Assembly: GCA_009380045.1 (NCBI GenBank) | Contig: WHSN01000006.1 | Span: 1 to 59,350, forward strand | Direction of reading: 5' to 3' | Source: Luteitalea sp. | GTDB taxonomy: Bacteria; Acidobacteriota; Vicinamibacteria; Vicinamibacterales; CAVVIG01 | DNA: 59,350 nt | In this document: positions 9,054 through 38,461 of the stretch, one piece after another | How the letters are laid out: the number at the start of each line of letters is the position of its first letter | Position numbering within the stretch: the stretch's first letter is position 1 | Position numbers and translations under genes: made by a program | Notes under the pieces: model-generated | Told to the model about the DNA's origin: nothing | What the model saw: the letters and a program-made list of their open reading frames with translations, nothing else | Databases searched by the model: none

Positions 9054-9080
9054 GTCCCGGTCGCTCCCGGCACGTCAGCG

Positions 9081-12741: not shown

Positions 12742-12817
12742 TTCTTCGCCCGAACCGCATGTCGGTCGAGATCACCAGGCGACCGGCGCGAGCTCTCGAC
12801 GCCAGCTACGACCCGCT

Positions 12818-12857
12818 ACAGTAGACGCGCGCGACGGAACAGTAGACGCGCGCGACG
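12818..12857. repeat. Tandem duplication, 21-bp period
   Basis: ACAGTAGACGCGCGCGACG at 12818 and 12839. Confidence 0.85.
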
Positions 12858-12973
12858 AGTTCCTCCGACGAGGCTGCTCGCGCCGGCTCGCTCGACCCGC
12901 ATCGATGCGGCGCCCACGGCTTCGCGCGATGCGATCCATCGACCGCAGCCCTGTCCACCGTGAGACCGCTCAA

Positions 12974-14233: not shown

Positions 14234-14273
14234 CACAACTGCTCCAGGGCCACAGACCCGAAGTCCTGGCCGG

Positions 14274-15227
14274 TTACTTGGTCCAATTGGCATCCCATCG
14301 GATGTTCAGCCAGGCCGCCACATCGTTGACCGCGCTGAAGCCATGTGACAGGTTGGCGGGGACAAAGAACACGTCACCGACCTTTGCCGGTGCGCTGACG
14401 CCCGTGTTCGCGACCGGCTTTCCGCCCTCGGTCTTGAAACCGGTGCTCACCGTGCCGCCCCCTTCGAGCACCACCCAGGTGTCAATCGTGATCGGGTGCA
14501 CCTCGCTCGAGGGCGCCTTGACCCGGCGGATGTTCACGTTGAAGTGCCCACCTTCGATCATCCGCACCGTTGAGATGTTCTTCGCTTCCATGTCCTGCCG
14601 ATACGCGTCCAGCTTCTCCTTCGGAATGTAGACCGCGCGATCGGTGGGCGCATACTCGATCGGCTGCATCCCGCCGCGTCCCGAGCGCCCGGCCGCGGGG
14701 GGAGCCGCCCCACGGCCGCGGCCGGCCCCGAGCTGTGCGTCGGCCGGCCAGTCGCTGTCCCAGCGGACGTTCAACCAGGTGATGTTTCCGTTGACGCCGC
14801 TGACCCCATGTGGGACGCCGTTGGGGATGAAGGCGACGTCGCCGACCTTCAGCGGGTTCGACTCGCCCCCGACGATCTTGCCGTTGTTGAGCTTGCCGCC
14901 CGTCGTCAACGTTCCGCCGCCATCCAGCACCACCCACAGATCGATCGTATTCGGATGGACCAGCGCCGTCTCCGCGTTCGTGATCCGGCGGATGTTGACG
15001 TTGAACTTTCCACCTTCAATCATTCGAAGCGTTTGGAGCCGCTTGGCATCCATGTCCTTCAGGTACTGCGCAAGCTTCTCCTTCGGGATCGGGATCGCAC
15101 GATCCGTCGGCGCCTGTTCGAGGATGGTCGTGCCCCTGCCCCTGCCTGCCTGCCCTCCTGCCCGAGCGACCGTGACGACGGCGCTGGCCAGGAGCAGGAC
15201 TAAGCAGGCACTCGCTGCTCTTCGCAT
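14274..15227 (-). CDS. Exported tandem-cupin protein
   Basis: Signal peptide and two similar halves (PTDRA..IPKEKL; MIEGG.FNVNIRR; H...D.WVVL.GGG; GDV.F.P....H). Confidence 0.85.
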   Translation of the reverse strand: MRRAASACLVLLLASAVVTVARAGGQAGRGRGTTILEQAPTDRAIPIPKEKLAQYLKDMDAKRLQTLRMIEGGKFNVNIRRITNAETALVHPNTIDLWVVLDGGGTLTTGGKLNNGKIVGGESNPLKVGDVAFIPNGVPHGVSGVNGNITWLNVRWDSDWPADAQLGAGRGRGAAPPAAGRSGRGGMQPIEYAPTDRAVYIPKEKLDAYRQDMEAKNISTVRMIEGGHFNVNIRRVKAPSSEVHPITIDTWVVLEGGGTVSTGFKTEGGKPVANTGVSAPAKVGDVFFVPANLSHGFSAVNDVAAWLNIRWDANWTK

Positions 15228-15250
15228 TGTGACTCCTTGTCCGATCGCAC

Positions 15251-15278
15251 GGCTGGCACGAAGTTCCTCGTGCCAGCC
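15251..15278. terminator. 11-bp hairpin between the TonB receptor and cupin genes
   Basis: GGCTGGCACGA-AGTTCC-TCGTGCCAGCC. Confidence 0.45.
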
Positions 15279-15398
15279 ATGCCGCGTGCTTAGTACTCTA
15301 ACCCTTGCTGATTCAGAAACAGCGGGTCACAACGATCACCGCCGCCCGCCCGGCTCCAGAGAGAGAACGACCAGAAGAAAGCCTCTCTGTGCCCGGCA

Positions 15399-22019: not shown

Positions 22020-25000
22020 GTGAAATCCAGCAGCACACACTTGATCCTGGGCCTGGCAGCCGGACTGACGCTGTTGGCGTTGACGGCTGGCGTCTATCTC
22101 GTCAGTCAGCGGAGCGACCGGCTTCCAGCTCCAGGCTCGGAGGTGTCCGAAGGCGCGACGCGCAGCTTCTACCTCGGTCTGGCGTCGCTTCAGGTCGGCC
22201 TGCTCGACCGGGCGAGGCAGGAGTTCACGCGCACCACGGAACTGGTCGCCGCCGAGCCAGCGTCGTGGGCGAATCTGGGCCTGGTGCATCTCCGGCTTGG
22301 CGACTTCGACGCCGCGCAGCCACCGATCGAGCGGGCGGCGGCACTCGCACCCGAGAGCAGCGAGATTGCCTTCCTGCTGGGACGAATGGCCACCATGCAG
22401 GGCCGGCTCGAGGAGGGCATCGCCCATCTTCGGCGAGCGGTCGACCTGAATCCCCGCAACCTGCAAGCCCGCTTCACACTCGTTCAGGAGATCGAGCGCT
22501 CGAGTGGTCAGAATGCCGATGCCGAAGCGCAGCAGGAGCTCGAGGAGCTCCTCGGCCTGGAACCTGACAACCTGGCAGTGCTTGTGGAACGCACCCGCCT
22601 GGCTGCCAAACGCGGCGAGATCGCGGCGCTTGGCGATTCGCTCGCGCGGCTCGGCGGGCTGCGGGCCGCCTGGCCCGCCACGACCATCGAGCACTACGAT
22701 TCGCTGCAGCGCGCGGTTACGGCGCAGGATTTCCCGGGAGCGGCGCGGGCAAGCACGTTTCTCAGGAACGTCCTGCTGCCGACACCAGCCTTTCAGGAGG
22801 GCCGTGTCCGTGTGAGCCCCGGGGATGAGCTCATCGCCGAGCCGTTCGAGCGTTTCCTGAAACTGCCGTCACCGAGCTCGATGCCGTCACCTGCCGATGA
22901 ATCGCTCACGTTCAGCCGGGAGACGGTTGGTGCGGCCCGCACCACCCCATGGACGGCGGTGTTGGCAGTGTCACTGGACGGCAGCAGTGCCCCTGCAATC
23001 TTCGCCACTGCTGGCGCCGAGCTGCGACGAATCGACGGGCCCGAGATCATCCTGCCGTCCCCATCCGACAACCCGCCCGTCGAACCGGCATCGCCAGGTG
23101 GGCTGCTGGCGCTCGATTGGAATCACGACTTCAGGATGGATCTGGTGAGCGCGGGCCGCGGAGGCGTTCGGCTGCTGGTGCAAGGGGAAGACGGAACGTT
23201 CGCCGACGCCACGGCGAACGCGGCAGGGGCGAGCACCGCCGGCTTGACCGACTGTTTCGGCGCCTGGACCGCCGATGTCGAGATGGACGGCGATCTCGAC
23301 ATCATCGTCGGCATCGAGGACACCGCGCCACTGGTGCTGAGGAACAACGGGGACGGCACCTGGCGCACCCTGCAGCCATTTGCCGGCGTGTCGGGCCTTC
23401 GGAGCTTCTCGTGGGGCGACCTGGATGGAGACGGCGATCCCGATGCCGCGCTGCTCGACGCGCGGGGCGAGATGCACCTGTTCATGAATCGGCAAGCCGG
23501 CGACTTCCGCCGCGTCGACACCGCGCCGGCCCGGCCCGAGGTGATCGCGCTGACGGTGGGCGACGCCAACGCCGATGGCGTGCTCGACATCGTGACGCTT
23601 GATGCGCGCGGAGCGATCCGGCGGGTCTTTGTGAATTCCGACGTCTGGGAGGAGCAGCCGCTGGCAACGTGGCCCGATTGGTCGGGCCAGCCGCTGCCGG
23701 GAACGTCTCGACTGTTTCTCGCGGATCTGGACAACAACGGAGCGCTCGATCTCGCGGCATCCGGTGCCGGGCGCTCCCGCATCTGGCTCGCCGATGAACG
23801 AAACGAGCTCCGGCTGCTGCCGGCCACCCTCGACGCCGAGATTTTCAGCGTCATCGATCTCGACAACGACGGTCACCTCGACCTGGTCGGACTGTCGGAC
23901 GGCCGTGCCGTGCGTATCGCCGGGCGCGGCACGAGCGGCTACCACTGGCAGGTGATCCGGCCGCGTGCCCAATCGGTGGCCGGCGATCAGCGGATCAACT
24001 CATTCGGCGTCGGCGGCGACATCGAGATTCGATCCGGCCTGCTGACGCAGAAGCAGACCATTGCCGGTACCGCGGTGCACTTCGGCCTGGGCGCCCGCAC
24101 GAGCATCGACGTCGCACGAATCGTCTGGCCCAACGGCGTCGCGCAGGCCGAATTCGACCGCGAGGCCGATCAGGTCATCGTCGCCGACCAGCGTCTGAAG
24201 GGTTCGTGCCCCTGGGTCTTCACCTATGACGGCACCGGGATGCGCTTCGTGACCGACTTCCTCTGGCGCTCGCCGCTCGGACTGCGCATCAACGCGCAGG
24301 ACACGGCGGATGTCACGCAGACCGAGGACTGGGTGAGGATTCGCGGGGATCAACTCGTCCCGAAGAACGACGCCTACGACGTGCGGATCACCGCGGAACT
24401 GTGGGAGACCCATTTCTTCGACCATGTGTCCTTGATGGCCGTCGACCATCCAGATGACGTGGAGGTGTTCGTCGATGAACGGTTCTCGAGCCAGCCTCCG
24501 GCGCTTGCCACCCGGGCAGTCACCCGGCCGCGCGCGATCGCGCGCGCCTGGGACGAAGCCGGCCGCGACGTCACCGATCTGCTGGCGCACCAGGATGGTC
24601 GCTATCTGGCCACCTTCACGCGCGGGCCGTACCAGGGCATCGCCCAGGATCACTTCGTCGAGTTCGAGGTCGGCGCGGAAGTCCCGCGCGACCGGCCGCT
24701 GTGGCTGGTCGCCAACGGGTGGATCTACCCGACCGACAGCAGCATCAACGTGGCGATCGGACAGGGGCAGCACGCGAGGCCGCGCGGGCTGGCGCTCGAA
24801 GAGCGGGACGAGGCGGGCCGTTGGATGGTCGTCAATCCCGACCTGGGGTTTCCCGCTGGAAAGAACAAGACCATTCTGATCGATCTGAACAACACCGCCG
24901 GCGCTGGCGCGGCGCGCACCCGGCGTCTGCGCCTGCGGACGAACCTCGAGGTCTACTGGGACTGGCTCGCTGTCGCCAATGCCGTCGAGAACCCGTCGCT

Positions 25001-25511
25001 GGTGACGACACGACTGCAGCCGACGCGCGCCGAGCTTCGTTACCGGGGGTTCTCGCAGACGAGCTACGAGAGGCGCGATCTCCCGGAAGTGCCGCTCTAC
25101 CAGACGATTGCGAACGTCGGCCAGCGCTGGCGCGATTTGATCGGGTATTACACGCGCTTCGGCGACGTCGTCGAGCTGCTCGATCGCGTGGACGACCGCT
25201 ACGTGATCATGAACGCAGGCGACGAGCTGCAGCTGTCGTTCGCGGTGCCGCAGCCGCCGGCCGCCGGCTGGCGCCGCGATTTCGTGCTGATCGGCGATGG
25301 CTGGGAGAAAGACGGCGACTACAACACCGGCTTTTCCAAGACGGTGCAGCCGCTGCCGTCGCACGACCAACCCGCGTATGGACGGGCGGTTACGACGCTC
25401 GAGCTCGATCGCGATCCCGTGTATCAGCGGCACGCCGCCGACTGGCGGACGTATCACACCCGGTTTGTGACGCCGCGTGATTTTCTCCGGGGCGTCAGGG
25501 TAGCGCCATGA
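22020..25511 (+). CDS. Large TPR + FG-GAP + ASPIC/UnbV protein with an extra C-terminal domain
   Basis: N-terminal TM/signal segment, TPRs (WANLGL..LRLG), many DxDxDGxxD repeats, VHFGLG...IVWPNG (UnbV), then LKGSCP and a ~430-aa C-terminal domain. Confidence 0.88.
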   Translation: MKSSSTHLILGLAAGLTLLALTAGVYLVSQRSDRLPAPGSEVSEGATRSFYLGLASLQVGLLDRARQEFTRTTELVAAEPASWANLGLVHLRLGDFDAAQPPIERAAALAPESSEIAFLLGRMATMQGRLEEGIAHLRRAVDLNPRNLQARFTLVQEIERSSGQNADAEAQQELEELLGLEPDNLAVLVERTRLAAKRGEIAALGDSLARLGGLRAAWPATTIEHYDSLQRAVTAQDFPGAARASTFLRNVLLPTPAFQEGRVRVSPGDELIAEPFERFLKLPSPSSMPSPADESLTFSRETVGAARTTPWTAVLAVSLDGSSAPAIFATAGAELRRIDGPEIILPSPSDNPPVEPASPGGLLALDWNHDFRMDLVSAGRGGVRLLVQGEDGTFADATANAAGASTAGLTDCFGAWTADVEMDGDLDIIVGIEDTAPLVLRNNGDGTWRTLQPFAGVSGLRSFSWGDLDGDGDPDAALLDARGEMHLFMNRQAGDFRRVDTAPARPEVIALTVGDANADGVLDIVTLDARGAIRRVFVNSDVWEEQPLATWPDWSGQPLPGTSRLFLADLDNNGALDLAASGAGRSRIWLADERNELRLLPATLDAEIFSVIDLDNDGHLDLVGLSDGRAVRIAGRGTSGYHWQVIRPRAQSVAGDQRINSFGVGGDIEIRSGLLTQKQTIAGTAVHFGLGARTSIDVARIVWPNGVAQAEFDREADQVIVADQRLKGSCPWVFTYDGTGMRFVTDFLWRSPLGLRINAQDTADVTQTEDWVRIRGDQLVPKNDAYDVRITAELWETHFFDHVSLMAVDHPDDVEVFVDERFSSQPPALATRAVTRPRAIARAWDEAGRDVTDLLAHQDGRYLATFTRGPYQGIAQDHFVEFEVGAEVPRDRPLWLVANGWIYPTDSSINVAIGQGQHARPRGLALEERDEAGRWMVVNPDLGFPAGKNKTILIDLNNTAGAGAARTRRLRLRTNLEVYWDWLAVANAVENPSLVTTRLQPTRAELRYRGFSQTSYERRDLPEVPLYQTIANVGQRWRDLIGYYTRFGDVVELLDRVDDRYVIMNAGDELQLSFAVPQPPAAGWRRDFVLIGDGWEKDGDYNTGFSKTVQPLPSHDQPAYGRAVTTLELDRDPVYQRHAADWRTYHTRFVTPRDFLRGVRVAP

Positions 25512-27310
25512 CCGGGATCCCGTCCGAGCGCCCGCTGCGGCTGCTGTGGACCGTCCTGCTCGTCGCGTCGCTGGCCGCAGTCGTCGCGCTGAATCGGACG
25601 GCCGGGACGGGACGCGGGGCATCTGCCGAGCCGTCGGACGCCCTGGCTCGCTACGGGTTCCAGCTCGAAGAAGGCGCGGCGCGAGCAGGCGTCGCGTTCC
25701 TCCACCAGGGACCAACCTTCGATCGGCAGCTGGATCACATCATGCCGCAGGTCGCCTCGATGGGAGCTGCCGTCGCCGTCGCCGACTTCAATCGCGACGG
25801 CTGGCAGGATTTCTATGTCACCAACAGCGCCGAAGGAAGCCTGAATCGCCTGTACCGGAACGCCGGTGACGGCACCTTCAGCGATGTGGCCGCCGAGCTT
25901 GGCGTGGCAGACGTGAATCGGCTCGGCACCGGCGTTTCGATGGGCGCCGTCTGGGGTGACTACGACAACGACGGGTACGAAGATCTGTTTCTGTACAAGT
26001 ACGGGCGACCGGAGCTGTATCACAACGACAACGGACGCGGCTTCACACCGCTCGGCGAGCAGTCCGGACTCCCGCAATGGGTGAACGCCAACAGCGCCGT
26101 CTGGCTCGACTACGACCGGGACGGCTGGCTCGATCTCTTCCTGGCGGGATACTGGCCGGAGGAACTGGACCTCTGGAATCTGAAGACCACCCGCATCATG
26201 CCCGAAAGCTTCGAGTACGCCGAGAACGGAGGCAGGAAATACCTGCTCCGCAACCGGGGCAACGGCACGTTCGAAGATACCGCCGCGGAGGTCGGGATCG
26301 GCTCGCGCCGCTGGACGCTTGCCGCCGCGGCGGCCGATCTGTTGGGAACCGGGTACCCAGATCTGTTTGTCGCCAACGACTACGGCGTCGCCGAGCTCTA
26401 CGCCAACCAGGGCGGCAAGCAGTTCGTCGAAGTGAGCCGCGAGACCGGCGTCGGCCGCACCCCCAAGAGCGGCATGAATGCGGCCTTCGGCGACATCTTC
26501 AATGACGGCCGGCTGTCGATCTACAAGACGAACATCTCGGAACCGGGCGTGCTCGTCCAGGCCAACGATCTATGGGTGCCGAAGCAGGCCGGGGCGCGAG
26601 GAGGACTCGAGTACGAAAATCTCGCCTCGAGCATGGGCGTGGATCTGGGCGGCTGGAGCTGGGGGGCACAGTTCGGCGACTTGAACAACGATGGAACGCT
26701 CGACATCTATCTCGTGAACGGCTACGTCTCGGCCGGGGACCGAACGAGCTATTGGTACGACTTCTCCGAGATCGCGGTGGGGCACAGCGGCATCATCTCC
26801 GATGCGCGGAACTGGCCCGCCATGAGAGGCCGAAGCCTGTCCGGGTATCAGCGCAAGCGTGTCTGGATCAACGATGGCGTGGGTCGCTTCACCGAAGTGG
26901 CGCAGGTCGTCGGAGCGACCGACACCCATGATGGTCGCGCCGTCGCGCTGGCGGATCTGTCGAACGCCGGTGTGCTCGATGTGATCGTGGCAAACCAGCG
27001 TGGTCCGCTGCTGCTGTACAAGAACAGGGTGGAGCCCGGGCGCCACTGGATCGCCTTCGAGCTCGAAGGCGGCGCCAGCAACCGCAGCGCGATCGGCGCT
27101 CGCGTCGAGCTGCATTGGAACGGCCAGCGCCAGGTGCAGGAGGTCAGCGGTGGAAGCGGGTTCAGCTCGCAGAACCAGCGCCGGCTGCATTACGGGCTGG
27201 GCGCGTCGGGAAGTGTGGACCGCGTCGTGATCCGGTGGCCGACAGGCCGTGATCAGACGGTGGTCAATCCCCAGGTCGACATGCTCCACAGGATTGCGGA
27301 ACCTCGATGA
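25508..27310 (+). CDS. CRTAC1-family FG-GAP/ASPIC-UnbV protein (enediyne E4/UnbV-like)
   Basis: ATGA overlap with the upstream gene. DFNRDGWQD, DYDNDGYED and GWSWGAQFGDLNNDG repeats; SNRSAIGARV...LHYGLG...IRWPTG. Confidence 0.9.
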   Translation: MTGIPSERPLRLLWTVLLVASLAAVVALNRTAGTGRGASAEPSDALARYGFQLEEGAARAGVAFLHQGPTFDRQLDHIMPQVASMGAAVAVADFNRDGWQDFYVTNSAEGSLNRLYRNAGDGTFSDVAAELGVADVNRLGTGVSMGAVWGDYDNDGYEDLFLYKYGRPELYHNDNGRGFTPLGEQSGLPQWVNANSAVWLDYDRDGWLDLFLAGYWPEELDLWNLKTTRIMPESFEYAENGGRKYLLRNRGNGTFEDTAAEVGIGSRRWTLAAAAADLLGTGYPDLFVANDYGVAELYANQGGKQFVEVSRETGVGRTPKSGMNAAFGDIFNDGRLSIYKTNISEPGVLVQANDLWVPKQAGARGGLEYENLASSMGVDLGGWSWGAQFGDLNNDGTLDIYLVNGYVSAGDRTSYWYDFSEIAVGHSGIISDARNWPAMRGRSLSGYQRKRVWINDGVGRFTEVAQVVGATDTHDGRAVALADLSNAGVLDVIVANQRGPLLLYKNRVEPGRHWIAFELEGGASNRSAIGARVELHWNGQRQVQEVSGGSGFSSQNQRRLHYGLGASGSVDRVVIRWPTGRDQTVVNPQVDMLHRIAEPR

Positions 27311-28167
27311 GCCCCGGGACCGCGGCACTGTCGCCGGCCGAAGCGCTGCCGTCCCGGCAGCGATCCCGCCGGGCGTTCGACAATCGCCTTCTCGGCCCGA
27401 TTCTGATCACGTGCATCCTGATTGCCGCCCACCTGTCCTTCGGCATCCTCGAGGGGTACGAGGGAACCGCGCTCGCAATCGTGACGGCGATTCTGGCGGA
27501 GATGGCGCTCGGGCGCCTCACCTACGGCCGCTGGCCCCACCTGGCAAGCGCCTACATCACGGGCATCAGCGTCGGGATTCTGGTTCGCTCGCCGTTCATG
27601 TGGCCATACGCGCTCGGCAGCCTGATCTCGATTGCGACGAAGTACGTGCTGCGGCTGAAGGGACGGCATCTCTGGAACCCGTCGAATTTCGGCGTCAGCG
27701 CCGAGCTCTTTCTCGCACCCGCGACGGTGTCCCTCCTCAGCATCCAGTGGGGCAACACGGTGTGGCCGATGGCCGTCATCTGGCTGCTCGGCGCCGTGAT
27801 CGTCTGGCGCGTCGGGCGTCTGCACATCAGTGCGACCTACGTCGCGTCGTTTCTGCTCTTTTCGGTCGTGCGCAGCGGCGTCACGGGAAATCCGTGGCTC
27901 GCCAACGTGGCGCCGATCACCGGGCCGATGTACCAGTTGTTCATCTTTTTCATGGTCACCGATCCGAAGACGACGGTACGCCCGCGGTGGGCGCAGTGTC
28001 TGGTGGTGTTCCTGGTCGCATTCGTCGAGATGCTGCTGCGGCTGGCGGAAGTGGTCTATGCGCCGTTTTACGCGCTGTTCCTGGTCGGGCCGGCAGCCAT
28101 GGCGACCGAGATCTGGCTGGAGTCGCGGCGGCAGGTATCCCGGGGACCTGAAGCACCCGCATCGTAG
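27307..28167 (+). CDS. RnfD/NqrB-like integral membrane protein (enediyne E5/UnbU-like)
   Basis: ATGA overlap and multiple TM helices. SAYITGISV, KYVLR..GRHLWNPSNFG and FFMVTDPKT motifs; no flavinylation S(G/T)AT motif seen. Confidence 0.82.
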   Translation: MSPGTAALSPAEALPSRQRSRRAFDNRLLGPILITCILIAAHLSFGILEGYEGTALAIVTAILAEMALGRLTYGRWPHLASAYITGISVGILVRSPFMWPYALGSLISIATKYVLRLKGRHLWNPSNFGVSAELFLAPATVSLLSIQWGNTVWPMAVIWLLGAVIVWRVGRLHISATYVASFLLFSVVRSGVTGNPWLANVAPITGPMYQLFIFFMVTDPKTTVRPRWAQCLVVFLVAFVEMLLRLAEVVYAPFYALFLVGPAAMATEIWLESRRQVSRGPEAPAS

Positions 28168-29772
28168 TTAGAAGCGATCCGGCAGCGACATCTTCGTTGC
28201 CGCCGAGCTCACCAACCCGCAGCATTCGAGCAGACGGTGGATCTCCTCCACTGACGAGTCGAGCTTCGAGGCCGAGCTGAGGAGATCGTCGGCCAGCACC
28301 GGGTACCAATCCCGGCGCGTGCGATCGAGGAGGCCCGCCGTGTCGAACGGCTCGATCGCACGGTCGATGCGACCGAGCAGCGCGTCGTGGCCTCGACCAT
28401 GCGGCGATGCCGTCGCCAGCGCCGCGCACGCCCGAAGCTCCGGGCCGAATCGCGGGTGGGCGTGAAGAAGAAATCCCGGCGCGAGCTCAGGCCTTCCCAG
28501 CCGGCGCGCCGCCTCGCTGAAGCTCGCGGCGGCGAAATACAGCAGCGACAGCCGCTTGAAGAGCGGAACGTCGGACATGTTCGCGTACAGCGCCGCGACC
28601 AGCTGCTCGGTCGCGTCCAGCTCGAGCTCGGTCACCCGCGCATAGGCGGCGAGGGCGGTGTCGCGCTCGGACCCGCCGGAGGTACCTTCCAGCACGTCGA
28701 GCAGCCGCCCGATGCCGAGCAGCGTCAGCGGAAATCCGGTCGAGAGCAGCGGATCGATCACGCCCGCCGCCGAGGGCAGCATCGCCCATTTGTCGCCCCA
28801 CATCACGTGGGTGCGAAAGGCAACCCGGGGGGCGTGCACGAAGGGATGCACGACCCGAGCCTCGCGGAACTGGTCGCCGACCGACGGCAACGTCTTCAGC
28901 AGCCGCTCCCAGGCTGCCGCGCCGTCGCCGGCCCCGACCGCCTGCGCCACCCGATCGGTCAGCGCGGCGCCGGCGCTCGTGATCCCGTTGTTGAACCGCA
29001 GCACCCAGATCCACCCGCCGGGGAACACATGATGAAGTGCCGCAGCGTCGGGCGGATACGGCGGCGCCCCATCGGGCGGCATCATTTCATCCCATCGCCC
29101 CACATCCTCGAAGTGGGCGTAGAGACCCTGGGTGCGCGGCAGCCAGCGGAGCGGAGGGTCGGCGAGGCCGATCGCCCGATGCAGGAATCCGCGCGGCCCG
29201 CTGGCGTCTACCACGAACCGCGCCGAGATGCGGATCGATCGGCCATTCCGCGTCCCGTCGAGAACGGCGCGATCGCCCTTGTTGCGCATCCGCTCGAGCC
29301 GCGTCTCGTCGAGATAGACGGCGCCTTCAGCTTCGGCGTCGCACGCGAGCGCCTGATCGAAGTCCGGCCGGTACCAATGGGTGTCAGCCACCTCGTCGCG
29401 CGGGCTGGCCGCGACCAGGAGCTGGCATCGGTGCTCGCCGTCGTCGGCAAAGGGCTCACCGGGACGATGGAAGAGGAAGGTGAAACCGCGCTTCACGCCG
29501 CCGGCGACCTCCGGCCGCTCGCGCTGCCAGGTTCCCCACTTCGAGAACGGACGGATGCGCCGCAAGTCGTAGCGATCGGCCAGTTCCTCGAGCAGCAGGT
29601 TGGCCAGCGGAGTGGATGACTCGCCGATGGCGAACCGCGGATGGCGTCCACGTTCGACGAGCGCCACGCGGCGACCGCGTCGGGTCAGCGCGAGCGAGAC
29701 CAGCGCGCCAGCGAACCCGGAGCCGATCACCGCGACGTCGGCATCGACGTGCTCGATCGGAGTAATGGTCAT
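28168..29772 (-). CDS. Flavin-dependent halogenase, PrnC-like
   Basis: VIGSGFAG, RHPRFAIGESSTP, VKRGFTFLFHRPG, VVDASG, GGWIWVLRF (WxWxI-like) and AAGVIDPLLSTG motifs. Confidence 0.82.
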   Translation of the reverse strand: MTITPIEHVDADVAVIGSGFAGALVSLALTRRGRRVALVERGRHPRFAIGESSTPLANLLLEELADRYDLRRIRPFSKWGTWQRERPEVAGGVKRGFTFLFHRPGEPFADDGEHRCQLLVAASPRDEVADTHWYRPDFDQALACDAEAEGAVYLDETRLERMRNKGDRAVLDGTRNGRSIRISARFVVDASGPRGFLHRAIGLADPPLRWLPRTQGLYAHFEDVGRWDEMMPPDGAPPYPPDAAALHHVFPGGWIWVLRFNNGITSAGAALTDRVAQAVGAGDGAAAWERLLKTLPSVGDQFREARVVHPFVHAPRVAFRTHVMWGDKWAMLPSAAGVIDPLLSTGFPLTLLGIGRLLDVLEGTSGGSERDTALAAYARVTELELDATEQLVAALYANMSDVPLFKRLSLLYFAAASFSEAARRLGRPELAPGFLLHAHPRFGPELRACAALATASPHGRGHDALLGRIDRAIEPFDTAGLLDRTRRDWYPVLADDLLSSASKLDSSVEEIHRLLECCGLVSSAATKMSLPDRF

Positions 29773-30773
29773 GAAGAAACGCCGAAGCCGCACCTGGTGC
29801 AGGAAGGCCGTGAGCGCACACGCTGTTCGAGATTGATCGCGTGGAGGCGGGCGCGCCGCGCCTCGAAGCAGTGCCGGCATTGAGCGAAGCGCTGGAGGTC
29901 CCAGAGATCGACGAAAATCCGGCCGCGATCGGGACGCGGCGTGAGCGCCGACTCGATGCTGCGCTCGATGTCTTCGAGCCGTGGCGCCCGAAACGCTCCC
30001 GCCGCGGCCAGGGCATCGAGCGCGCCGTTCCCCGAGCGGGTCGGGATGACCGACACGGCCGAGGCGCCGCAGGCGAAGGCGACGTCGATCGATCGCAGCA
30101 GCCAATGGTCCTGCTCGGCGGGCGGGACAAACGGCGGCGAGATCAGCAGAAAGACGCGCAGCGCCGCTCCCCGGCTCCGCAGTTGCTCAGCCGCGGAGGC
30201 GAACTGGTCGACGGTCATTCGCTTGTTCAAGCGATCGAGAGCCTCCGGGTGCACGGTCTCCAGACCCATCGCAACCTCGAGTTGTGTGGTGTCCGCGGCG
30301 CCCTGACGCTGCAATGCGCCCAGAAACCGGTCCACCCTGGAGCCGACGAAAGCCGGGTGTGATTCCACCACCACGCGTGCGAGCCCGGCCAGCTTGACCG
30401 CCACCTCGTCGTAGTCGTGCTCGGGGACGGCGTGGGGATCGAAGAAGCTGCCGGCGTTGTAGAGCTTGATCTGCGTGATCGGGCTGGACTCCCCGCGCAG
30501 TTCCTCGCGCGCGGCGCCCACCTGCGCTGGAATGGCGCCTCGAGGTGTGTCTTCAGCAATCGTGTGTTGCCACAGATCGCACATCGCGCACCGCCAGGGG
30601 CACTCCCGCCCTGTCAGAAAGACAGTCGCCGCACGAGCGATTTGCCGGTCGGCCGTACGCTCGTCCTCGACGATGACGCCTTGATGGCGCCAGGGGCTGT
30701 GGAGCGGCTTCGGCCCACGTCGATCGAGGACGAAGCGGTCGCGAGCGGTCGCGCTGACAGGATAGAATCGCAT
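29769..30773 (-). CDS. Radical SAM enzyme resembling archaeosine-synthase radical SAM subunit RaSEA
   Basis: CPWRCAMC, IKLYNAGSFFD, VVESHP, EVAMGLET, LNK and FLLISPPF motifs; C-terminal CRHC...CTRC; its stop overlaps the halogenase start (ATGA). Confidence 0.85.
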   Translation of the reverse strand: MRFYPVSATARDRFVLDRRGPKPLHSPWRHQGVIVEDERTADRQIARAATVFLTGRECPWRCAMCDLWQHTIAEDTPRGAIPAQVGAAREELRGESSPITQIKLYNAGSFFDPHAVPEHDYDEVAVKLAGLARVVVESHPAFVGSRVDRFLGALQRQGAADTTQLEVAMGLETVHPEALDRLNKRMTVDQFASAAEQLRSRGAALRVFLLISPPFVPPAEQDHWLLRSIDVAFACGASAVSVIPTRSGNGALDALAAAGAFRAPRLEDIERSIESALTPRPDRGRIFVDLWDLQRFAQCRHCFEARRARLHAINLEQRVRSRPSCTRCGFGVSS

Positions 30774-30892
30774 CGGAGTCGCGGGCCGCCGCTCCCGTGC
30801 AGGGGCCCCGGTAATCTTTTTGGATTATTGAGGGTTGACGGACGCCCTTCATATACTAATTCACTCGAATCCCGGTCCGACACGGAGAGAGA

Positions 30893-31495
30893 ATGGGGGA
30901 CGTGGACGCAGTGCATGCCGGTGCTCTCCAGCCCGGTTCGACCATGACGTTCGTCGAGCGACTGAACGGTCCCCGGCACGAGCTCGCGTTGCGTGCGTTC
31001 ATGGTGATCGTCCTCGCGCACTGGGCCGAGCACCTGTTACAGGCTTTTCAGATCTACGCGCTCGGCTGGCCGGTGCCCGAGGCGCGCGGCGGGCTGGGGT
31101 ATTTCTTCCCCTGGCTCGTGGCGTCGGAAACGCTGCACTACGGGTACGCGCTGGTGATGCTTGCCGGCCTCTGGTTGCTGCGATCGGGCTTCACCGGCGT
31201 GAATGACCGCCGCTGGTGGACCATCGCTCTGGCGATCCAGTTCTTTCATCACATCGAACATGTGCTGCTGCAGACGCAGGCGCTCCTCGGCCAGAATTTC
31301 TTCGGTCAGCCAGTACCGACAAGCCTTGTCCAGCTCTGGGCGCCCCGGGTCGAGCTGCACCTTTTCTACAATACGGTGGTGTTCATCCCGATGGTTGTCG
31401 CGATGTACTTTCACATGTTTCCGCCATCACCAGAGACCACCACGCGGAAGTGCAGTTGTGCGTGGCATGCCGGTCGGGTCCCCGCGGCCGTGTGA
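30893..31495 (+). CDS. His/Glu-rich four-helix membrane protein of unknown function
   Basis: Internal duplication HWAEH...ETLH / HHIEH...VELH inside TM segments; C-terminal CSC. Confidence 0.8.
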   Translation: MGDVDAVHAGALQPGSTMTFVERLNGPRHELALRAFMVIVLAHWAEHLLQAFQIYALGWPVPEARGGLGYFFPWLVASETLHYGYALVMLAGLWLLRSGFTGVNDRRWWTIALAIQFFHHIEHVLLQTQALLGQNFFGQPVPTSLVQLWAPRVELHLFYNTVVFIPMVVAMYFHMFPPSPETTTRKCSCAWHAGRVPAAV

Positions 31496-31889
31496 CGGCG
31501 GCGCCTGCTTCTTGCTCATTCTCGCCGCTGCCTGCTGCATGGTTGCGGCATGCAGTGGCCGACCCGCTCTTGCGGAAGACGTGACTGTCGAATGGACGAT
31601 CAGGCCCAGGCCACCCGTCGCCGGTACAGCGGCGCTGGCGGAGCTGACACTGCGCGACCGGGCGCGCCGGCCGGTTCGTGGGGCCAGGCTGCAGGTCGAG
31701 GGGCACATGGCGCATCCCGGAATGGCGCCCCTCGTCGCCACCGCCGCAGAACGGGGCGACGGCGTCTACCAGATCCTGCTGCGGTTCACGATGCGCGGAA
31801 ACTGGATCCTGCTCGTGACCGGCAAGCTGCCGGATGGACGCAGGATCGATCATCGAATCGATGTCAATGCCACCGGCCCGGCAGGCTGA
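31467..31889 (+). CDS. FixH/YtkA-like lipoprotein
   Basis: Lipobox VAAC; PVRGARLQVEGHMAHPGM, GDGVY and FTMRGNW motifs. Start uncertain. Confidence 0.8.
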   Translation: MPVGSPRPCDGGACFLLILAAACCMVAACSGRPALAEDVTVEWTIRPRPPVAGTAALAELTLRDRARRPVRGARLQVEGHMAHPGMAPLVATAAERGDGVYQILLRFTMRGNWILLVTGKLPDGRRIDHRIDVNATGPAG

Positions 31890-33291
31890 CGTTTTACGGT
31901 GGCCCGTCATCGGGGCCTTCCTGCGCTGGCGGCATGCGCGCACGTCACTCCAGCTCGTTGTCCTCCTGATTACCGCGACGCTGGTCGCTCATGGGCTGTT
32001 CGGTTCCCAGATCGGACCGAGGAACCTCGCCACAGTCGTCACCTGGGTGCACTATCGCGGATTGCTGGTGATTGCGCTGCTGGCGGCGGGCAATCTGTTC
32101 TGCACCGGCTGTCCGTTCGTGCTGGTGCGCGACGTCGGACGTCGGGTTCGCCAGCCGTGGCTCCGCTGGCCCCATCGACTCCGCACGAAATGGATCGGCA
32201 TCCTGCTGTTCGTCTCGGTCCTCTTCATCTACGAGCTGTTCGACTTGTGGGCGCTGCCGCGGGGCACGGCCCTTCTGGTGCTCGCCTACTTCGGCGCCGC
32301 GCTGTCGGTCGATCTCGTCTTTGCCGGAGCGACGTTCTGCAAGTACTTGTGTCCGATCGGGCAGTTCAACTTCGTGGCGTCGACCGTGTCTCCGCTGGCG
32401 CTCCAGGTTCGCCAGCCGGAGACCTGCAGGACGTGTCGTACGTTCGATTGCATCAAGGGGCGCCCGGAGACGAACCAGCGGGGCTGCGAGCTCGGCCTCT
32501 TCCTGCCGGCCAAGATCGGCAGTCTCGATTGCACCTTCTGCCTCGACTGCGTCCAGGCGTGCCCGCACGACAACGTGGCGCTGGCGGTCGGCGTCCCAGG
32601 CGCCGAGCTGCTCGACCTCCGTCGGCGTTCGGGAATCGGCCGGCTGACCGAGCGGTGGGATGTCGCGACGCTGACGGTTCTGTTTGCGTTCGGCGGCCTC
32701 TTGAACGCCTTCGCGATGACCGCGCCGGTCCTCGATCTCGAGCGGTGGCTGGCGCGCGTGATGGGCAGCACGTCGGAGGCGCCGGTACTCGCGGTTCTCT
32801 TCGTTGTCGCGCTCGGTGCGGTTCCGCTCGCAGCGCTGGGCGGCGCCGCAGCCGTCACGCGGCACCTGACGCGGCCGACCTCGTACTCGGTCGGGCAGAT
32901 CGCGGTTCGCTACGCCTGCGCGCTCGTCCCCTTCGGGTTCGGCGTGTGGCTGGCCCACTACGGGTTCCACCTGCTCACCGGCGGGCTGACGATCATCCCG
33001 GTGGCCCAGAGCGCCATCATCGAGGTGGTCGGTTGGGCCGCGCTCGGCGCCCCGATGTGGCAGTGGACCGGGATGCAGCCTGGCGCCGTTTTCCCAATCC
33101 AGCTCGGATTCATCCTGTTGGGATCGATCGGATCGCTGGCACTGTCGTATCTCATCTCCGAGCGCGACTATCCGGACCGACCGGTCTTCGCGGCGGCTCC
33201 GTGGCTCGGAGTGGTGCTCGTGCTGGCCGCGGCTGCGGTGTGGATCCTGTCGCAGCCCATGGAGATGAGAGGATTGGGCCTCTCGGGATGA
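31861..33291 (+). CDS. Polytopic membrane 4Fe-4S-binding protein (NapH/MauN/RdxA/NosR-like)
   Basis: FCTGCPF, FCKYLCPIG, CRTCRTFDC, GCEL and CTFCLDCVQACP motifs with many TM helices. Confidence 0.85.
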   Translation: MSMPPARQADVLRWPVIGAFLRWRHARTSLQLVVLLITATLVAHGLFGSQIGPRNLATVVTWVHYRGLLVIALLAAGNLFCTGCPFVLVRDVGRRVRQPWLRWPHRLRTKWIGILLFVSVLFIYELFDLWALPRGTALLVLAYFGAALSVDLVFAGATFCKYLCPIGQFNFVASTVSPLALQVRQPETCRTCRTFDCIKGRPETNQRGCELGLFLPAKIGSLDCTFCLDCVQACPHDNVALAVGVPGAELLDLRRRSGIGRLTERWDVATLTVLFAFGGLLNAFAMTAPVLDLERWLARVMGSTSEAPVLAVLFVVALGAVPLAALGGAAAVTRHLTRPTSYSVGQIAVRYACALVPFGFGVWLAHYGFHLLTGGLTIIPVAQSAIIEVVGWAALGAPMWQWTGMQPGAVFPIQLGFILLGSIGSLALSYLISERDYPDRPVFAAAPWLGVVLVLAAAAVWILSQPMEMRGLGLSG

Positions 33292-33839
33292 GGCGGCGGA
33301 CCGGCTTGCGGGCGGCCGCGTTCGCGGCGGCAACCGCCGTTGCGGCAGCCATCGCGCCCGCCCAGGCACACGACGGCCCGCCGTTCCCGATCGTGTCGGA
33401 CGCCGTCGCCGGCCCGTATCGCATTTCGATCTGGACCGATCCCGACACCACCGATGATGGCACGCCGGGCGGGCAGTTCTGGATCGTCATCGAGCCGGTG
33501 GATCGGGCGGTCTCGCTTCCGCCGGAAACGCAGGCAAGCATCTCAATCGAGCCGCTCGATCGAAGCGGACCGGCACGGACGGCCCGGATGGCGCCGGTCA
33601 CCAACGATGTGGCGCGTCAGTTCGTCGCGCTGGCGATCGATCACGAAGGCCGCTTCGCCGTGCAAGCGGCGATCGACGGGCCGCTGGGCAAGGCGGCGGT
33701 GGATGGAGAGGTCGAGGCCACCTACGATCTGCGGCCGCCGCCGATGATGCTGGCCGTGTACCTGATGCCGTTCGTCCTGGTCGGCCTTCTCTGGGGCAGA
33801 TTGCTGCTCGCGCGGCGGCGCCATCGGAGTGAGAGATGA
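33288..33839 (+). CDS. Exported, C-terminally membrane-anchored protein with a mature N-terminal His
   Basis: ATGA overlap, signal peptide ending AQA|HDGPPF, Ig-like body, C-terminal TM helix and basic tail. Confidence 0.8.
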   Translation: MRRRTGLRAAAFAAATAVAAAIAPAQAHDGPPFPIVSDAVAGPYRISIWTDPDTTDDGTPGGQFWIVIEPVDRAVSLPPETQASISIEPLDRSGPARTARMAPVTNDVARQFVALAIDHEGRFAVQAAIDGPLGKAAVDGEVEATYDLRPPPMMLAVYLMPFVLVGLLWGRLLLARRRHRSER

Positions 33840-33855
33840 TGCCGGGTCCCCGGAG

Positions 33856-35232
33856 TCAGCGTGCCGCCGCCGACGGCGCCGGGGCGGTCGTGGGCGCCGC
33901 TGTGGAGTAGAGGCGGTCGAACGTCCGGCGGTAGCCGCTCTCGTCCTGTCCGATGCGGGCGCGCAGTGTCTCAACCGGCATCGCGCCGTGCTGAAAGCGC
34001 CGCTTCGGAAACACCGGCATGTCCACCCCGGCGATCGCCTTGATCCCGCGCCGCACGATGTCACCTTTGAGCGCGTAGAGCGACGGCACGTCGTACTGCG
34101 TCAGGCTGGCGAAGGGAATCGCCTCGGCCACTTCGATCACGTTTCGCTGCGTGTAGGGGCTGAAACCGGCAAACCCGTAGCGCTGCCCCGGCGCATAGGT
34201 GCGGACGTAGCTTCGGCTCAGTCCGCCGCTGTAAGTGAGTGAATGTTTGATGCGTCCGACGCCCCAACCCTCCTGATACAGCATCAGATTGTCGATGACG
34301 CTGCGGATCGTCAGCTCGGCGTTCTCGTCGATCGGATAGTCCTTGAGGTTCTCGTCGCCGCCGTCCCCATCGGCGAGATGGCGCCAGCCCGGATACCGGT
34401 CGCGAATGCCCTTGCAGAGCCGCAGGCCCATCGCCGCGCACTCGACGTCGAGCGGCTTGTAGTCCTCGAGAACACGCACGGTTTCCTCGACATCGAGATC
34501 CTCGGCTGTGGCGTCGATCTCCTCGAGGAACAGGGACAGGCCGGCCGCGGAGAGAAACGCGCGGGCTTGATGCAGGTCTGGGCCGTCGCCGAGATTGAGC
34601 ACGAATGCCTTGAGCCTCGACGGCGACATGCCGAGGCGCAGCATGGCGTGATAGGTGAGGAGGAACACCGATCCGCTGTCGACGCCGCCGGAAAAAGCGA
34701 CCCCGATCGGTTCCGGACCCGACCCGCGCGTCTCGATGCCGCGCAGCCATTGCACGATCTCGTCCTCGAGAGCGCCGACATACCGCCGGCCGATCTCGTC
34801 GAGGTCGGCAGCGAGCGTCGCCCTCGGCGGCGTGAAGAAGCGGGTGTAGGCCGGATCCGGATCAGGACACCCGACCAGCGCGAGTTGGACCACGTAGTGG
34901 GCCGGCACCATGCGGGTGTAGCTCGGGTGGAACTGATTCGCCAGGCCGTCGTTCGCCAGCGCCTGGTGCAAGGTGTCGATGCGATCCGCGACATACAGCG
35001 CCGGGCCTTCCTGGCGTTTGGCCAGGAAGTAGCGCATCGGCCGATCCATCGAGCGCGCCAGGCGGACGACGACCCCTTCGGCCGCCACGAGGGCGAACGA
35101 TCCATCGATGGCGCGGACGGCGGCCGGGTCGCCGCTGAGCACCGAGCGCCGTGCGGCTTCCACATCCATGTTGGGGATTCGATTCAGAGCCGGGTCGAGG
35201 AGATCGACCACACGGCTGACCGGATGACGCAT
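33856..35232 (-). CDS. Asparagine-synthetase-like ATP-dependent amide ligase lacking the glutaminase Cys1
   Basis: Degenerate N-domain (IDGSFALV...LARSMDRPMRY), PP-loop IGVAFSGGVDS, then DGDGGDENL and FSPY. Confidence 0.85.
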   Translation of the reverse strand: MRHPVSRVVDLLDPALNRIPNMDVEAARRSVLSGDPAAVRAIDGSFALVAAEGVVVRLARSMDRPMRYFLAKRQEGPALYVADRIDTLHQALANDGLANQFHPSYTRMVPAHYVVQLALVGCPDPDPAYTRFFTPPRATLAADLDEIGRRYVGALEDEIVQWLRGIETRGSGPEPIGVAFSGGVDSGSVFLLTYHAMLRLGMSPSRLKAFVLNLGDGPDLHQARAFLSAAGLSLFLEEIDATAEDLDVEETVRVLEDYKPLDVECAAMGLRLCKGIRDRYPGWRHLADGDGGDENLKDYPIDENAELTIRSVIDNLMLYQEGWGVGRIKHSLTYSGGLSRSYVRTYAPGQRYGFAGFSPYTQRNVIEVAEAIPFASLTQYDVPSLYALKGDIVRRGIKAIAGVDMPVFPKRRFQHGAMPVETLRARIGQDESGYRRTFDRLYSTAAPTTAPAPSAAAR

Positions 35233-37156: not shown

Positions 37157-37200
37157 CCTTGACCGTCTACAATACGATCGTATATTGTAGACTGTCGAGG
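37157..37200. promoter_or_regulatory. Long palindrome over the padR promoter (operator)
   Basis: GTCTACAATA-N8-TATTGTAGAC (37165-37192), extendable with 2 mismatches; overlaps TTGACC (37159) and TATATT (37181). Confidence 0.7.
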
Positions 37201-37544
37201 TGTCGTCGCCTGTGGGAAAACCACACGATCTGGTGCAAGGCACGCTGGATCTGCTGATCCTCAAGGTCATCTCGCTCGAGCCCAAACACGGCTGGGCGAT
37301 TGCCAAGCGTATCCAGCAAATCTCCCAGCACGCGCTGCAGGTGCAGCAGGGCTCGCTCTACCCTGCGCTGTACCGGCTCGAGCAGCAGGCGTGGATCAAG
37401 GCGGAGTGGAAGAAGACGGAAACCGGACGTCTGGCGAAGTTCTACGCGTTGACGGCCGCCGGCCGCAGACAGCTCCAGAAGGAGCTGGCGAGCTGGAGCC
37501 GGCTGTCGGGTGCGATCAACCTCGTGATGCGCACCACCGAGTGA
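37200..37544 (+). CDS. PadR-family regulator (acidobacterial type)
   Basis: LVQGTLDLLILK, HGWAIAKRI and QQGSLYPALYRLE motifs. Confidence 0.92.
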   Translation: MSSPVGKPHDLVQGTLDLLILKVISLEPKHGWAIAKRIQQISQHALQVQQGSLYPALYRLEQQAWIKAEWKKTETGRLAKFYALTAAGRRQLQKELASWSRLSGAINLVMRTTE

Positions 37545-37550
37545 GGGCGT

Positions 37551-38129
37551 ATGCGGTGGTTCGACACGCTTCGTTTGACGACGCGGTCGTTGCTGTTGCG
37601 CAATCACGTCGAGAACGAGCTCGAGGCCGAGCTGCGGTTCCACATCGATCGGCAGACCGACGAGAACATCCGCGCCGGGATGAGCGCCGAGGCCGCGCGC
37701 CTGTCAGCGCTCCGCACGACCGGAAGTGTCATGCGCATCAAGGAGCAGTGCCGCGAAACGTTCGGGGTGCGGCTGCTCGACCAGTTGCGGCAGGACGTGC
37801 GCTACGCGTTGAGGTCCTTCAGGCGCACTCCTGGATTCACCGTCGTCGCGGCTGTCACCCTGGCACTCGGCATCGGCGCCACGACGGCAATCTTCAGCGC
37901 CGTGAACGCCGCGCTGATGAAGCCGCTGCCCTTCACGAGTCCGGAGCAGCTCGTCAACATCCGCGAAACGGACCGGCGCGGCCGCGGCAGCGTCTCCGTG
38001 TTTTCGGGAAATTTCGTCGAGTGGCGAAACCGGGCATCGTCGTTTCAAGAGGCGGCCGCTTGGAGACTCGAGTATTTCAACGTCACCGGGAACGATGAAC
38101 CAGAGCAGGTGCAGGGCCTGCGCGTGTCC
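37551..38129 (+). pseudogene. Truncated ADOP/MacB-like duplicated permease (N-terminal ~193 codons only)
   Basis: ELEAELRFH and QDVRYALRSFRRTPGFT...TLALGIGATTAIFSAVNA motifs. Similarity ends at VQGLRVS and the frame runs on to 38342 in unrelated sequence. Confidence 0.8.
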
Positions 38130-38224
38130 GAGCGCGCGCGACGCGGTCCTCCGAGCGGAAGGTTCCCAAGGGGGGGCCTCTCCCTCGGCGCGCGCGCAAC
38201 GAACACGTTCGAGGAGAAACCGAC

Positions 38225-38461
38225 ATGGAACCATTTCTCGGCCAGATTCAACTCTTTCCCTACACCTTCGCGCCCAGGGGGTGGGCGCTCTGCGATGGGC
38301 GGAGCCTCCCTATTTCGCAGAACCAGGCGTTGTTTGCGTTGATTGGCACCAACTTCGGCGGGGACGGCCGAACGACCTTCGCGCTGCCAAAGCTCGCAGG
38401 CCCAGCCGCCGACCTCGGCTACTATATCGCGCTGCAAGGCATCTTCCCCAGCCGCGAGTAG
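38225..38461 (+). CDS. Minimal phage-tail-collar domain protein (MdpB-like)
   Basis: GAGGAG RBS; FLGQIQLF...FAPRGWALCDG...QNQALFALIGT.FGGDG.TTFALP, and a C-terminal YIALQGIFPSR. Confidence 0.9.
   Translation: MEPFLGQIQLFPYTFAPRGWALCDGRSLPISQNQALFALIGTNFGGDGRTTFALPKLAGPAADLGYYIALQGIFPSRE

Follow-up and report, generated by a model that had tools for sequence, protein, structure and literature searches.

What do ten tightly packed genes do together in an acidobacterial genome, when they encode candidate relatives of two enediyne cassette proteins, a halogenase-family enzyme and a radical S-adenosylmethionine (SAM) enzyme, and neither a polyketide synthase (PKS) nor a nonribosomal peptide synthetase (NRPS)? 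The window analysed here is the whole of a 59,350-nucleotide stretch of Luteitalea sp. DNA (contig WHSN01000006.1 of assembly GCA_009380045.1, positions 1 to 59,350 of the forward strand), which belongs to a 4.3-Mb metagenome-assembled genome (MAG) of 251 contigs, labelled G000 in our survey. The genes in question, G1 to G10, occupy positions 22020-35232. The original prediction took them for a single undescribed system. We find that the neighbourhood is real and recurrent rather than a product of chance, and that it consists of three modules, A (G1 to G3), B (G4, G5 and G10) and C (G6 to G9), which are held together by selection and are each able to exist alone. On the reading that we prefer, to which we give about an even chance, these linked but separable modules would divide the work: module B would make or install a halogenated amide- or amidine-type group, in a chemistry that we infer, and modules A and C would act in the cell envelope.

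Ten open reading frames (ORFs) with coding-type GC content at third codon positions fill the interval. Module A lies on the plus strand and comprises G1 (22020..25511, in a frame open from 21948), a membrane-anchored protein with TPR, FG-GAP and UnbV_ASPIC domains; G2 (25508..27310), a CRTAC1-like exported beta-propeller with seven FG-GAP repeats and UnbV_ASPIC; and G3 (27307..28167), a polytopic membrane protein resembling E5 (UnbU), NqrB and RnfD. Two genes of module B follow on the minus strand, the accessory G4 (28168..29772), a PltM/CtcP-type enzyme of the flavin-dependent halogenase family, and G5 (29769..30773), a radical SAM enzyme of the module core whose nearest family is RaSEA. Beyond a divergent intergenic region, module C returns to the plus strand with G6 (30893..31495, start possibly at 30944), a four-helix membrane protein rich in His and Glu; G7 (31467..31889), a YtkA/CtaK-like lipoprotein; G8 (31834..33291), a NapH/MauN/CcoG-like polytopic ferredoxin; and G9 (33288..33839), an exported protein with a His start and a C-terminal membrane anchor. 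The second core gene of module B, G10 (33856..35232, minus strand), encodes a two-domain ATP-dependent ligase of the Asn-synthetase fold. ATGA overlaps join genes at 25508-25511, 27307-27310 and 33288-33291 on the plus strand and at 29769-29772 on the minus strand, and the stop codons of G3 (28165-28167) and G4 (28168-28170) abut, leaving a convergent gap of 0 bp. Our reading of the ORFs and of the sequence confirms the packing first described, including the junction at 28167/28168, and family scans with follow-ups showed that all ten domain calls had been accurate.

The distribution of the neighbourhood was studied in two sets of loci. Of the 457 confirmed stretches that an alignment of G5 relatives gave in 185,579 species genomes, we kept the best 80, 78 of them Acidobacteriota-type or unclassified and 2 from Verrucomicrobiota. 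The ten cluster proteins and seven flanking proteins were compared with these 80 loci by tblastn; many of the loci are truncated by contig ends. A sample of 251 Acidobacteriota genomes provided 19 further loci, hence 99 altogether. Among the 99, 65 have at least 9 kb on each side of G5 (the full-flank set), and the 54 of these with good G10 and G5 form the tree set, for which a G10+G5 tree was built with FastTree. The pairs L082/L025 and L083/L070 are probably duplicate contigs between the locus sets: within each pair the contigs are equally long, and the matches of L082 and L025 were identical in our search for a heptad-repeat ORF (see below).

The borders of the cluster are sharp, since each of the ten genes was found in 25-77 of the 80 loci and each flanking protein in at most 7. 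In the full-flank set, 45 loci have module A (G2 or G3) within 10 kb and 26 have module C (G6 or G8): 23 loci carry both, 22 carry A without C, 3 carry C without A, and 17 carry neither. Modules A and C are found on either side of the B core and in either orientation, with eight module orders and orientations among the 54 tree loci. On the G10+G5 tree, these arrangements require at least 18 changes (at least 9 for the presence of A and at least 10 for that of C), against a mean of 35 when labels are shuffled. Hence, the arrangement is partly inherited, yet the modules have repeatedly been reshuffled while staying close together. The gene-neighbourhood search proposed with the original prediction is therefore positive: co-localisation recurs in at least eight orders or orientations, and the flanks are not conserved. 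Genomes with both A and B number 8, where about 1.2 would be expected (22 x 14 / 251), with the caveat that kin are not independent. Co-variation of A and C on the tree gave a median p of 0.5 in an underpowered comparison.

These data speak to the view that the modules are functionally unrelated, and are neighbours through shared descent or as cargo of a variable region. Each module does occur alone, no upstream word is common to them, and loci mostly belong to one class with labels clustered on the tree (18 changes, where shuffled labels average 35). However, proximity survives at least 18 rearrangements and 8 orders in loci whose flanks differ, and A and B lie within 10 kb of each other in 7 of the 8 sampled genomes that carry B and a close A. 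Moreover, module C sits exactly between G10 and G5 in the window, as it also does in 7 of the 54 tree loci, an A-like pair and C are colinear in genome G034, and an FG-GAP gene follows the radical SAM gene in the divergent locus L100 (both described below). We judge such unrelatedness quite improbable.

If the modules are linked, are they obligately so? The tight packing with overlaps, the sharp borders and the presence of all three modules in 23 of the 65 full-flank loci would suit a single ten-gene pathway in which periplasmic and membrane proteins finish or use the product of the enzymes. The survey shows that they also occur apart. Close orthologues of G3 (46-68% identity) were found in 14 of the 251 genomes, 8 with the enzymes of module B and 6 without (G201, G189, G137, G171, G211 and G215). 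In five of the latter, G1-G2-G3 form an operon of their own, accompanied by extra CRTAC1 paralogues and without B or C, and in G215 just G2-G3 was found. Conversely, B stands without A or C in 17 of the 65 full-flank loci, and C was found in 3 of the 251 genomes as compared with 22 for B. Module C also occurs with an A-like pair without B, and the halogenase is sometimes missing. An obligate ten-gene pathway is thus very unlikely, and inter-module dependence is at most facultative because each module is also found apart. This is where the original prediction had to be changed: a single system is not obligatory, and its four alternating blocks, whose grouping does recur, are really three modules, the ligase usually being the first gene of the operon of the radical SAM enzyme and the halogenase.

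The clearest case of modules A and C without B is the locus L110 (G034:C4:24000-43900, about 7300-16900, minus strand) of genome G034, which lacks the G10-G5-G4 trio. On one strand it carries genes for a 950-aa cytochrome-c/RoxA-like protein, a CRTAC1 paralogue (28% identity) and an E5-like protein (29%; PF03116 at 8e-4), then a 130-aa ORF, G6, G7, G8 and G9. As this genome is without the enzymes, the association of module C with an A-type pair does not depend on B, and the locus suggests a periplasmic redox operon that joins the two.

Within module B, G10 and G5 are the obligate core and G4 is dispensable. G5 and G10 are present in exactly the same 22 of the 251 sampled Acidobacteriota genomes (both counts include the unpublished genome G024), and they are adjacent, wherever the contig allows, in 19 of the 19 loci fetched from this sample. 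G10 was found in 72 of the 80 loci and in 63 of the 65 full-flank loci. The usual relatives have a single co-directional operon in the order G10, G5, G4; in the window, module C is placed between G10 and G5. Among sampled Verrucomicrobiota genomes, G10 was found in 2 of 201, and all 3 Verrucomicrobiota genomes tested carry both G10 and G5, even where these are unlinked. The Verrucomicrobiota G10 is 66-69% identical to that of the window and G5 is 49-52% identical, so G10 is the more conserved of the two. In Verrucomicrobiota and in the loci without halogenase, the neighbours of G10 and G5 are unrelated housekeeping genes. Since the pair is often found among such genes, the substrate of module B should be a common metabolite or macromolecule rather than a dedicated scaffold.

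The sequence of G10 matches Asn_synthase (8.5e-9) at residues 174-303 alone, i.e. in the PP-loop half, and reaches 32.2 bits against the asparagine synthetase B model TIGR01536, below its cut-off of 267.1. The PP-loop reads SGGVDS at 181-186, with S181, G182, G183, D185 and S186 invariant. The protein starts with MRHPVSR and has no Cys among its invariant N-terminal columns, hence it lacks the Cys nucleophile of a glutaminase. Its columns are on average 74% identical, and it has an invariant block of its own, DGDGGDENLKDYP. The structural model of G10 (predicted local distance difference test, pLDDT, 82.8) reproduces the complete AsnB fold with both domains; in the fold search it came closest to beta-lactam synthetase (1mc1, TM 0.63) and next to human ASNS, AsnB, carbapenam synthetase (CarA) and TsnB9, in alignments of 12-20% identity. 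Like beta-lactam synthetase, carbapenam synthetase and TsnB9, G10 combines an AsnB fold and a PP-loop SGGxDS with the lack of an N-terminal Cys; unlike them, it neighbours a radical SAM enzyme and a halogenase instead of beta-lactam genes. In G5, the cluster motif CX3CX2C (C58/C62/C65) is invariant both in 17 and in 27 sequences, and the C-terminal Cys 299, 302 and 325 are invariant or nearly so. A sequence search of the PDB gave no match for G10, G5, G3 or G8. The predicted G10-G5 complex scored 0.27, where the mark was 0.32, and was counted neither for nor against a complex.

The nearest described pair is the archaeal ArcS-RaSEA, in which ArcS and RaSEA co-purify as a complex, and ArcS attaches lysine to preQ0 in tRNA before RaSEA completes archaeosine (PMC11298593). 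It shares with G10 and G5 the association of a transferase or ligase with a TIGR01210-type radical SAM enzyme, here in strict co-occurrence. The hosts of the present pair are bacterial, in contrast, and a halogenase usually follows G5.

If the likeness extended to the substrate, G10 and G5 would modify a base in tRNA or DNA much as ArcS-RaSEA does, with the halogenase as extra tailoring and the envelope modules unrelated. Among characterised families, RaSEA is nearest to G5, the pair sits among housekeeping genes in several genomes, G10 is highly conserved, and PP-loop ATPases commonly act on tRNA. Yet the match of G5 stays at 91 bits against a cut-off of 212, and no TGT, ArcS or 7-deazaguanine (preQ0) genes were found as conserved neighbours of the related loci. 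The patchy spread of the pair (22 of 251 Acidobacteriota and 2 of 201 Verrucomicrobiota genomes) is also unlike a core translation function, and to our knowledge no flavin-dependent halogenase acts on nucleic acids. We give this possibility little credence.

Some variants of the pair were encountered. The deeply diverged locus L100 (G011:C302, 2215-7038) has a G10 of 47% and a radical SAM enzyme of 31% identity and no halogenase; a PIN-domain ORF lies between the two genes and an FG-GAP protein is encoded directly after the radical SAM enzyme. It is a second, independent tie of the G10/G5 pair to FG-GAP proteins. In the search for G5 relatives, 8000 proteins were scored and 5642 of them reached E<=0.001. 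Twelve long relatives (P0241-P0252) include 4 open frames with Asn_synthase and radical SAM and 3 with radical SAM and halogenase; as every one of these frames rests on one record, they are either true fusions or merged gene calls. In a Limisphaerales locus, an adenylosuccinate-lyase-like gene (L081:8385-9899, plus strand) is directly upstream of the radical SAM and halogenase genes, and the G10 orthologue is on another contig. As a pathway member this gene was set aside, being seen in that one locus and taken as a coincidence.

By its sequence, G4 is a halogenase-family enzyme. It aligns over about 400 residues with PltM (5.4e-43) and CtcP (8.9e-42), whose substrates are phloroglucinol and tetracycline, respectively. 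Like them it has a GxGxxG motif (GSGFAG, residues 18-23; G18 and G20 in 84 of 84 sequences, G23 in 83) and, at K95, a Lys invariant in 84 of 84 that aligns with those of 'GIKLGF' in PltM and 'GQKSNF' in CtcP, the former being the catalytic Lys of PltM. The context of G4 differs from theirs in having no PKS, pyrrole or tetracycline genes. G4 was found in 77 of the 80 loci, in 16 of the 19 sampled loci and in 63 of the 65 full-flank loci.

Part of what is known of G4 could also be read in favour of protein maturation. Module B would then act in the cytoplasm on a protein or peptide, introducing a cross-link, an amide or a (halo)hydroxylated residue into an exported FG-GAP/UnbV protein of module A or into a small peptide, as QhpD/QhpG or LodB/GoxB do for quinone cofactors and as lasso-type Asn-synthetase-like cyclases do. 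QhpG is indeed the best NCBIfam match of G4, GoxB and LodB are listed as well, and WxWxIP is altered. FG-GAP proteins are encoded beside B in 45 of the 65 loci, and directly after the radical SAM gene in L100. The conservation of G10 (74% of columns; 66-69% identity between phyla) would fit a macromolecular substrate, and 28 of 114 sequences have an Asn/Gln-rich heptad-repeat ORF at a module border. However, G4 is far closer to PltM and CtcP (alignments at 5e-43 and 9e-42), which act on free substrates, than to QhpG (4e-19, 69 of 240 bits), and B is without a conserved neighbour in 17 of the 65 loci and in Verrucomicrobiota. The cluster loci yielded no leader peptidase, RRE or conserved precursor, and the heptad-repeat peptide offers no aromatic residue to a halogenase and was not found in this genome with the query used. 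We regard maturation as unlikely.

The claim that the window has no scaffold synthase and no precursor peptide has stood. No scaffold synthase was seen in the scan of flanking ORFs, and all-against-all comparisons, covering 11,134 unmasked ORFs (30 aa or longer) and 535 ORFs of trio-only loci, revealed no further conserved gene family. The same ORF sets, together with 2,079 short ORFs beside G10, G5 and G4, gave no conserved precursor peptide, shadow ORFs and the heptad-repeat ORF being all that emerged. The latter is a family of about 55-90 aa with heptads [IL][LA]xNQxK, rich in Asn, Gln and Lys despite the high GC content of the genomes, and matches no Pfam family. It always stands at the edge of a module, after G4, G3 or G9, or divergent from G1 (in the trio-less L105); examples are L004:8351-8584 (plus), L082:7602-7868 (minus) and L053:18748-18993 (plus), with 25 other sequences, none of them in the window.

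Module A consists of two UnbV-type proteins and an E5-like one. G1 matches FG-GAP_3 (3.5e-25), TPR families and, at 24.7 bits (cut-off 23.4), UnbV_ASPIC, its C-terminal stretch of about 440 aa belonging to no known family; orthologues were found in 48 of the 80 loci. G2 (56 of 80 loci) matches FG-GAP_3 (1.1e-44) and UnbV_ASPIC (1.4e-20), and its sole match in the PDB sequence search was human CRTAC1 (9etn, 6e-11). G3 (57 of 80 loci) has no Pfam or NCBIfam match. JGI names its close homologues 'enediyne biosynthesis protein E5' or RnfD/NqrB, some with a precomputed PF03116 match, and the E5 name of G3 is taken solely from these labels. At G218:C4:1651532-1652303, a G3 orthologue matches as two overlapping pieces in different frames, which suggests a frameshift or an assembly error.

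The FG-GAP and UnbV_ASPIC domains of G2, together with the adjoining and overlapping E5-labelled G3, recall the E4 (UnbV) and E5 (UnbU) proteins of the enediyne cassette. Unlike in that cassette, no enediyne PKS (PksE), thioesterase E10 or further conserved gene accompanies them, either in the window or at the related loci, and a G2-G3-type pair also stands alone in trio-less genomes. As there is no PKS, the neighbourhood is not an enediyne cassette. It might still be a PKS-independent relative of the enediyne accessory machinery, in which the E4/E5-type pair, fed by the putative copper/electron relay, the ligase-radical SAM pair and the PltM-type halogenase would make or install a halogenated amide or amidine cofactor or signal. 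We consider such a relationship distinctly unlikely; if true, the long-enigmatic E4/E5 proteins would gain a general role in halogen-linked oxidative chemistry outside enediynes, in abundant soil Acidobacteria. The idea that E4/E5-type proteins relate to halogen chemistry comes from Gui et al. (2024), who are reported to have linked the enediyne cassette to cryptic iodination.

The proteins of module C have the features of metal or redox components. G6 (36 of 80 loci; 3 of 251 genomes, G000, G028 and G034) has invariant H43xxE46H47, E79xxH82, H119H120xE122H123 and E154xH156, both HxxEH motifs being invariant, and its model (pLDDT 81) shows four long helices lined with His and Glu. A PDB fold search with this model gave 0 matches at E<=0.001, and no family exceeded its threshold; a weak lead points to DUF6008 (0.026), for which the literature search found no published paper. 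G7 (25 of 80 loci at the coverage filter) has a lipobox and matches PF13115 (YtkA) above the gathering score (4e-10, 40.6 bits vs 25.9), with M81, H83, M86 and M109 conserved in 27 sequences. G8 (33 of 80 loci) carries CxxCP, CxxxCP and two 4Fe-4S-type Cys motifs, and all 33 sequences compared share C90, C93, C169, C173, C198, C201, C206, C218, C233, C236, C239 and C243. The mature N-terminus of G9 (33 of 80 loci) is probably His28, invariant in 35 of 35 sequences and directly following an AQA signal-peptide end that was read by eye as the cleavage site; D118-H119-E120 is conserved too. G9 has no Pfam or NCBIfam match, and an Atlas lead connects it to YtkA-like clusters. The intergenic region between G5 and G6 (30774..30892, no strand) is locally AT-rich with TTGACG and TATACT boxes and, judged from these letters, likely contains the promoters of module C and of G5-G4; the CCTATACT word, a TATACT-type box, was found upstream of G6 in 9 of 36 loci.

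Known copper kits (CcoG/FixG-FixH, CopC-CopD-YtkA as in YcnJ, and CtaK) resemble module C in having a YtkA lipoprotein, a NapH/CcoG-like ferredoxin, an exported protein with an invariant, probably N-terminal His and a His-rich membrane protein. They differ from it in that no heme-copper oxidase genes are adjacent here. YtkA/CtaK and CopC/CopD act in delivering copper to oxidases, and CcoG is cited as a cupric reductase (PMC13344008). These roles, the YtkA family membership and Met/His motif of G7 and the probable N-terminal His of G9 lead us to read module C, by analogy, as a putative periplasm-facing copper/electron relay.

On our preferred reading, the three modules would be connected as follows. 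G10 would adenylate a carboxylate and join it to an amine, and the resulting adduct would be acted on by G5 in a radical step, much as in ArcS-RaSEA, in which an amidine is left once RaSEA has taken off the lysine carrier. G4 would halogenate an electron-rich ring of the same substrate. In the envelope, G9 would bind Cu(II) in the manner of a His brace, G8 would be the reductase, akin to CcoG/NapH, and Cu(I) would be carried by the YtkA/CtaK-like G7; this relay of G7 to G9 could serve the His/Glu-lined G6, module A, or both. What the data show is which genes are present, the families to which they are assigned, and that they co-occur and co-localise; we infer the metal, every one of the chemical steps and the use or processing of the product of B by A and C.

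Several results weigh against this reading. For the enzymes, the best family of G5, TIGR01210 (RaSEA; 6.5e-26), is matched at 91.3 bits, below the cut-off of 212.15, and the partner of G5 has an Asn-synthetase fold where that of RaSEA is ArcS. G4 reads W-I-W-V-L-R (L259 in 84 of 84 sequences, R260 in 80 of 84), i.e. WxWxLR, in the very columns in which PltM and CtcP carry the WxWxIP motif, and its best NCBIfam match is the Trp-hydroxylating maturase QhpG (4e-19, 69 of 240 bits), with GoxB and LodB also listed. Given this departure and the weak likeness to QhpG, G4 could be a monooxygenase instead. A halogenase is missing near G5 in 3 of the 19 acidobacterial loci (L092, L094 and L100), and was not found at E<=1e-10 in 2 of the 3 Verrucomicrobiota genomes that retain G10 and G5. 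For the envelope proteins, 187 of 600 positions in G2 are at least 95% conserved, and these include no Cys and, among His, H66 and H561 only; the conserved columns contain no metal-site pattern. The copper assignment of module C rests on analogy: G8 matches TIGR02163 (NapH/MauN-type; 4.3e-12) with 46 bits, below the cut-off of 213, and G6 and G9 match no family, CopD and CopC models included. As to the linkage, the 6 of 14 genomes with a close G3 and no B, the 17 of 65 loci with B alone, and genome G005, in which A and B are on separate contigs, all fit it less well, and no regulatory word common to all three modules was found upstream of G10, G1 and G6. Finally, the sample is biased, as all 99 loci were reached via the radical SAM gene and mostly come from Vicinamibacteria-like kin. 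This G5-based retrieval, the kinship and at least two probable duplicate loci cause the counts to overstate independence.

By family assignment, each enzyme belongs to a known superfamily, but none of them attains the curated cut-off of its nearest family or carries the full set of its motifs. The expectation that no described pathway has this combination held up in our literature searches, which found no published description of the G10-G5-G4 trio or of the ten-gene neighbourhood, and the latter is apparently undescribed. A sponge halogenase preprint (10.64898/2026.08.03.742642) presents clusters of a halogenase with AMP-binding proteins, a different architecture. G10 and G5 represent a large uncharacterised enzyme family, with thousands of metagenomic proteins and 457 loci in 185,579 species genomes, in which a RaSEA-like radical SAM enzyme and an Asn-synthetase-fold ligase are usually joined by a halogenase-family flavoenzyme, without PKS, NRPS or visible precursor. 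Working out what they do would probably bring to light a radical SAM reaction and a halogenated metabolite or modification, both new, from Acidobacteria, a major and poorly cultured soil phylum. The repeated linkage to UnbV/E5-like proteins provides a tractable, PKS-free setting in which to ask what enediyne-cassette-type proteins do, and module C adds G6 and G9 as candidate new copper-handling proteins.

None of the ten flanking ORFs scanned around the cluster encodes a PKS or NRPS; their products are TonB-receptor-like, NHL, cupin, DUF6282, PadR or unknown proteins. No ketosynthase was found on this contig, the PF00109 matches of the genome all being on other contigs. One of these contigs (C11 of G000, locus L113, 1234-7734, minus strand) encodes the one large PKS of the genome, a 2166-aa type I enzyme with the domains KS-AT-KR-DH-ACP-TE, in an order unlike that of enediyne PKS, and adjoins a formyltransferase-like gene. 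Downstream of the cluster, positions 37200-38342 of the window (plus strand) encode a PadR-family regulator followed by a 263-aa protein without a Pfam family, and weak homologues of these two proteins are found near the cluster in 4-5 of the 80 loci.

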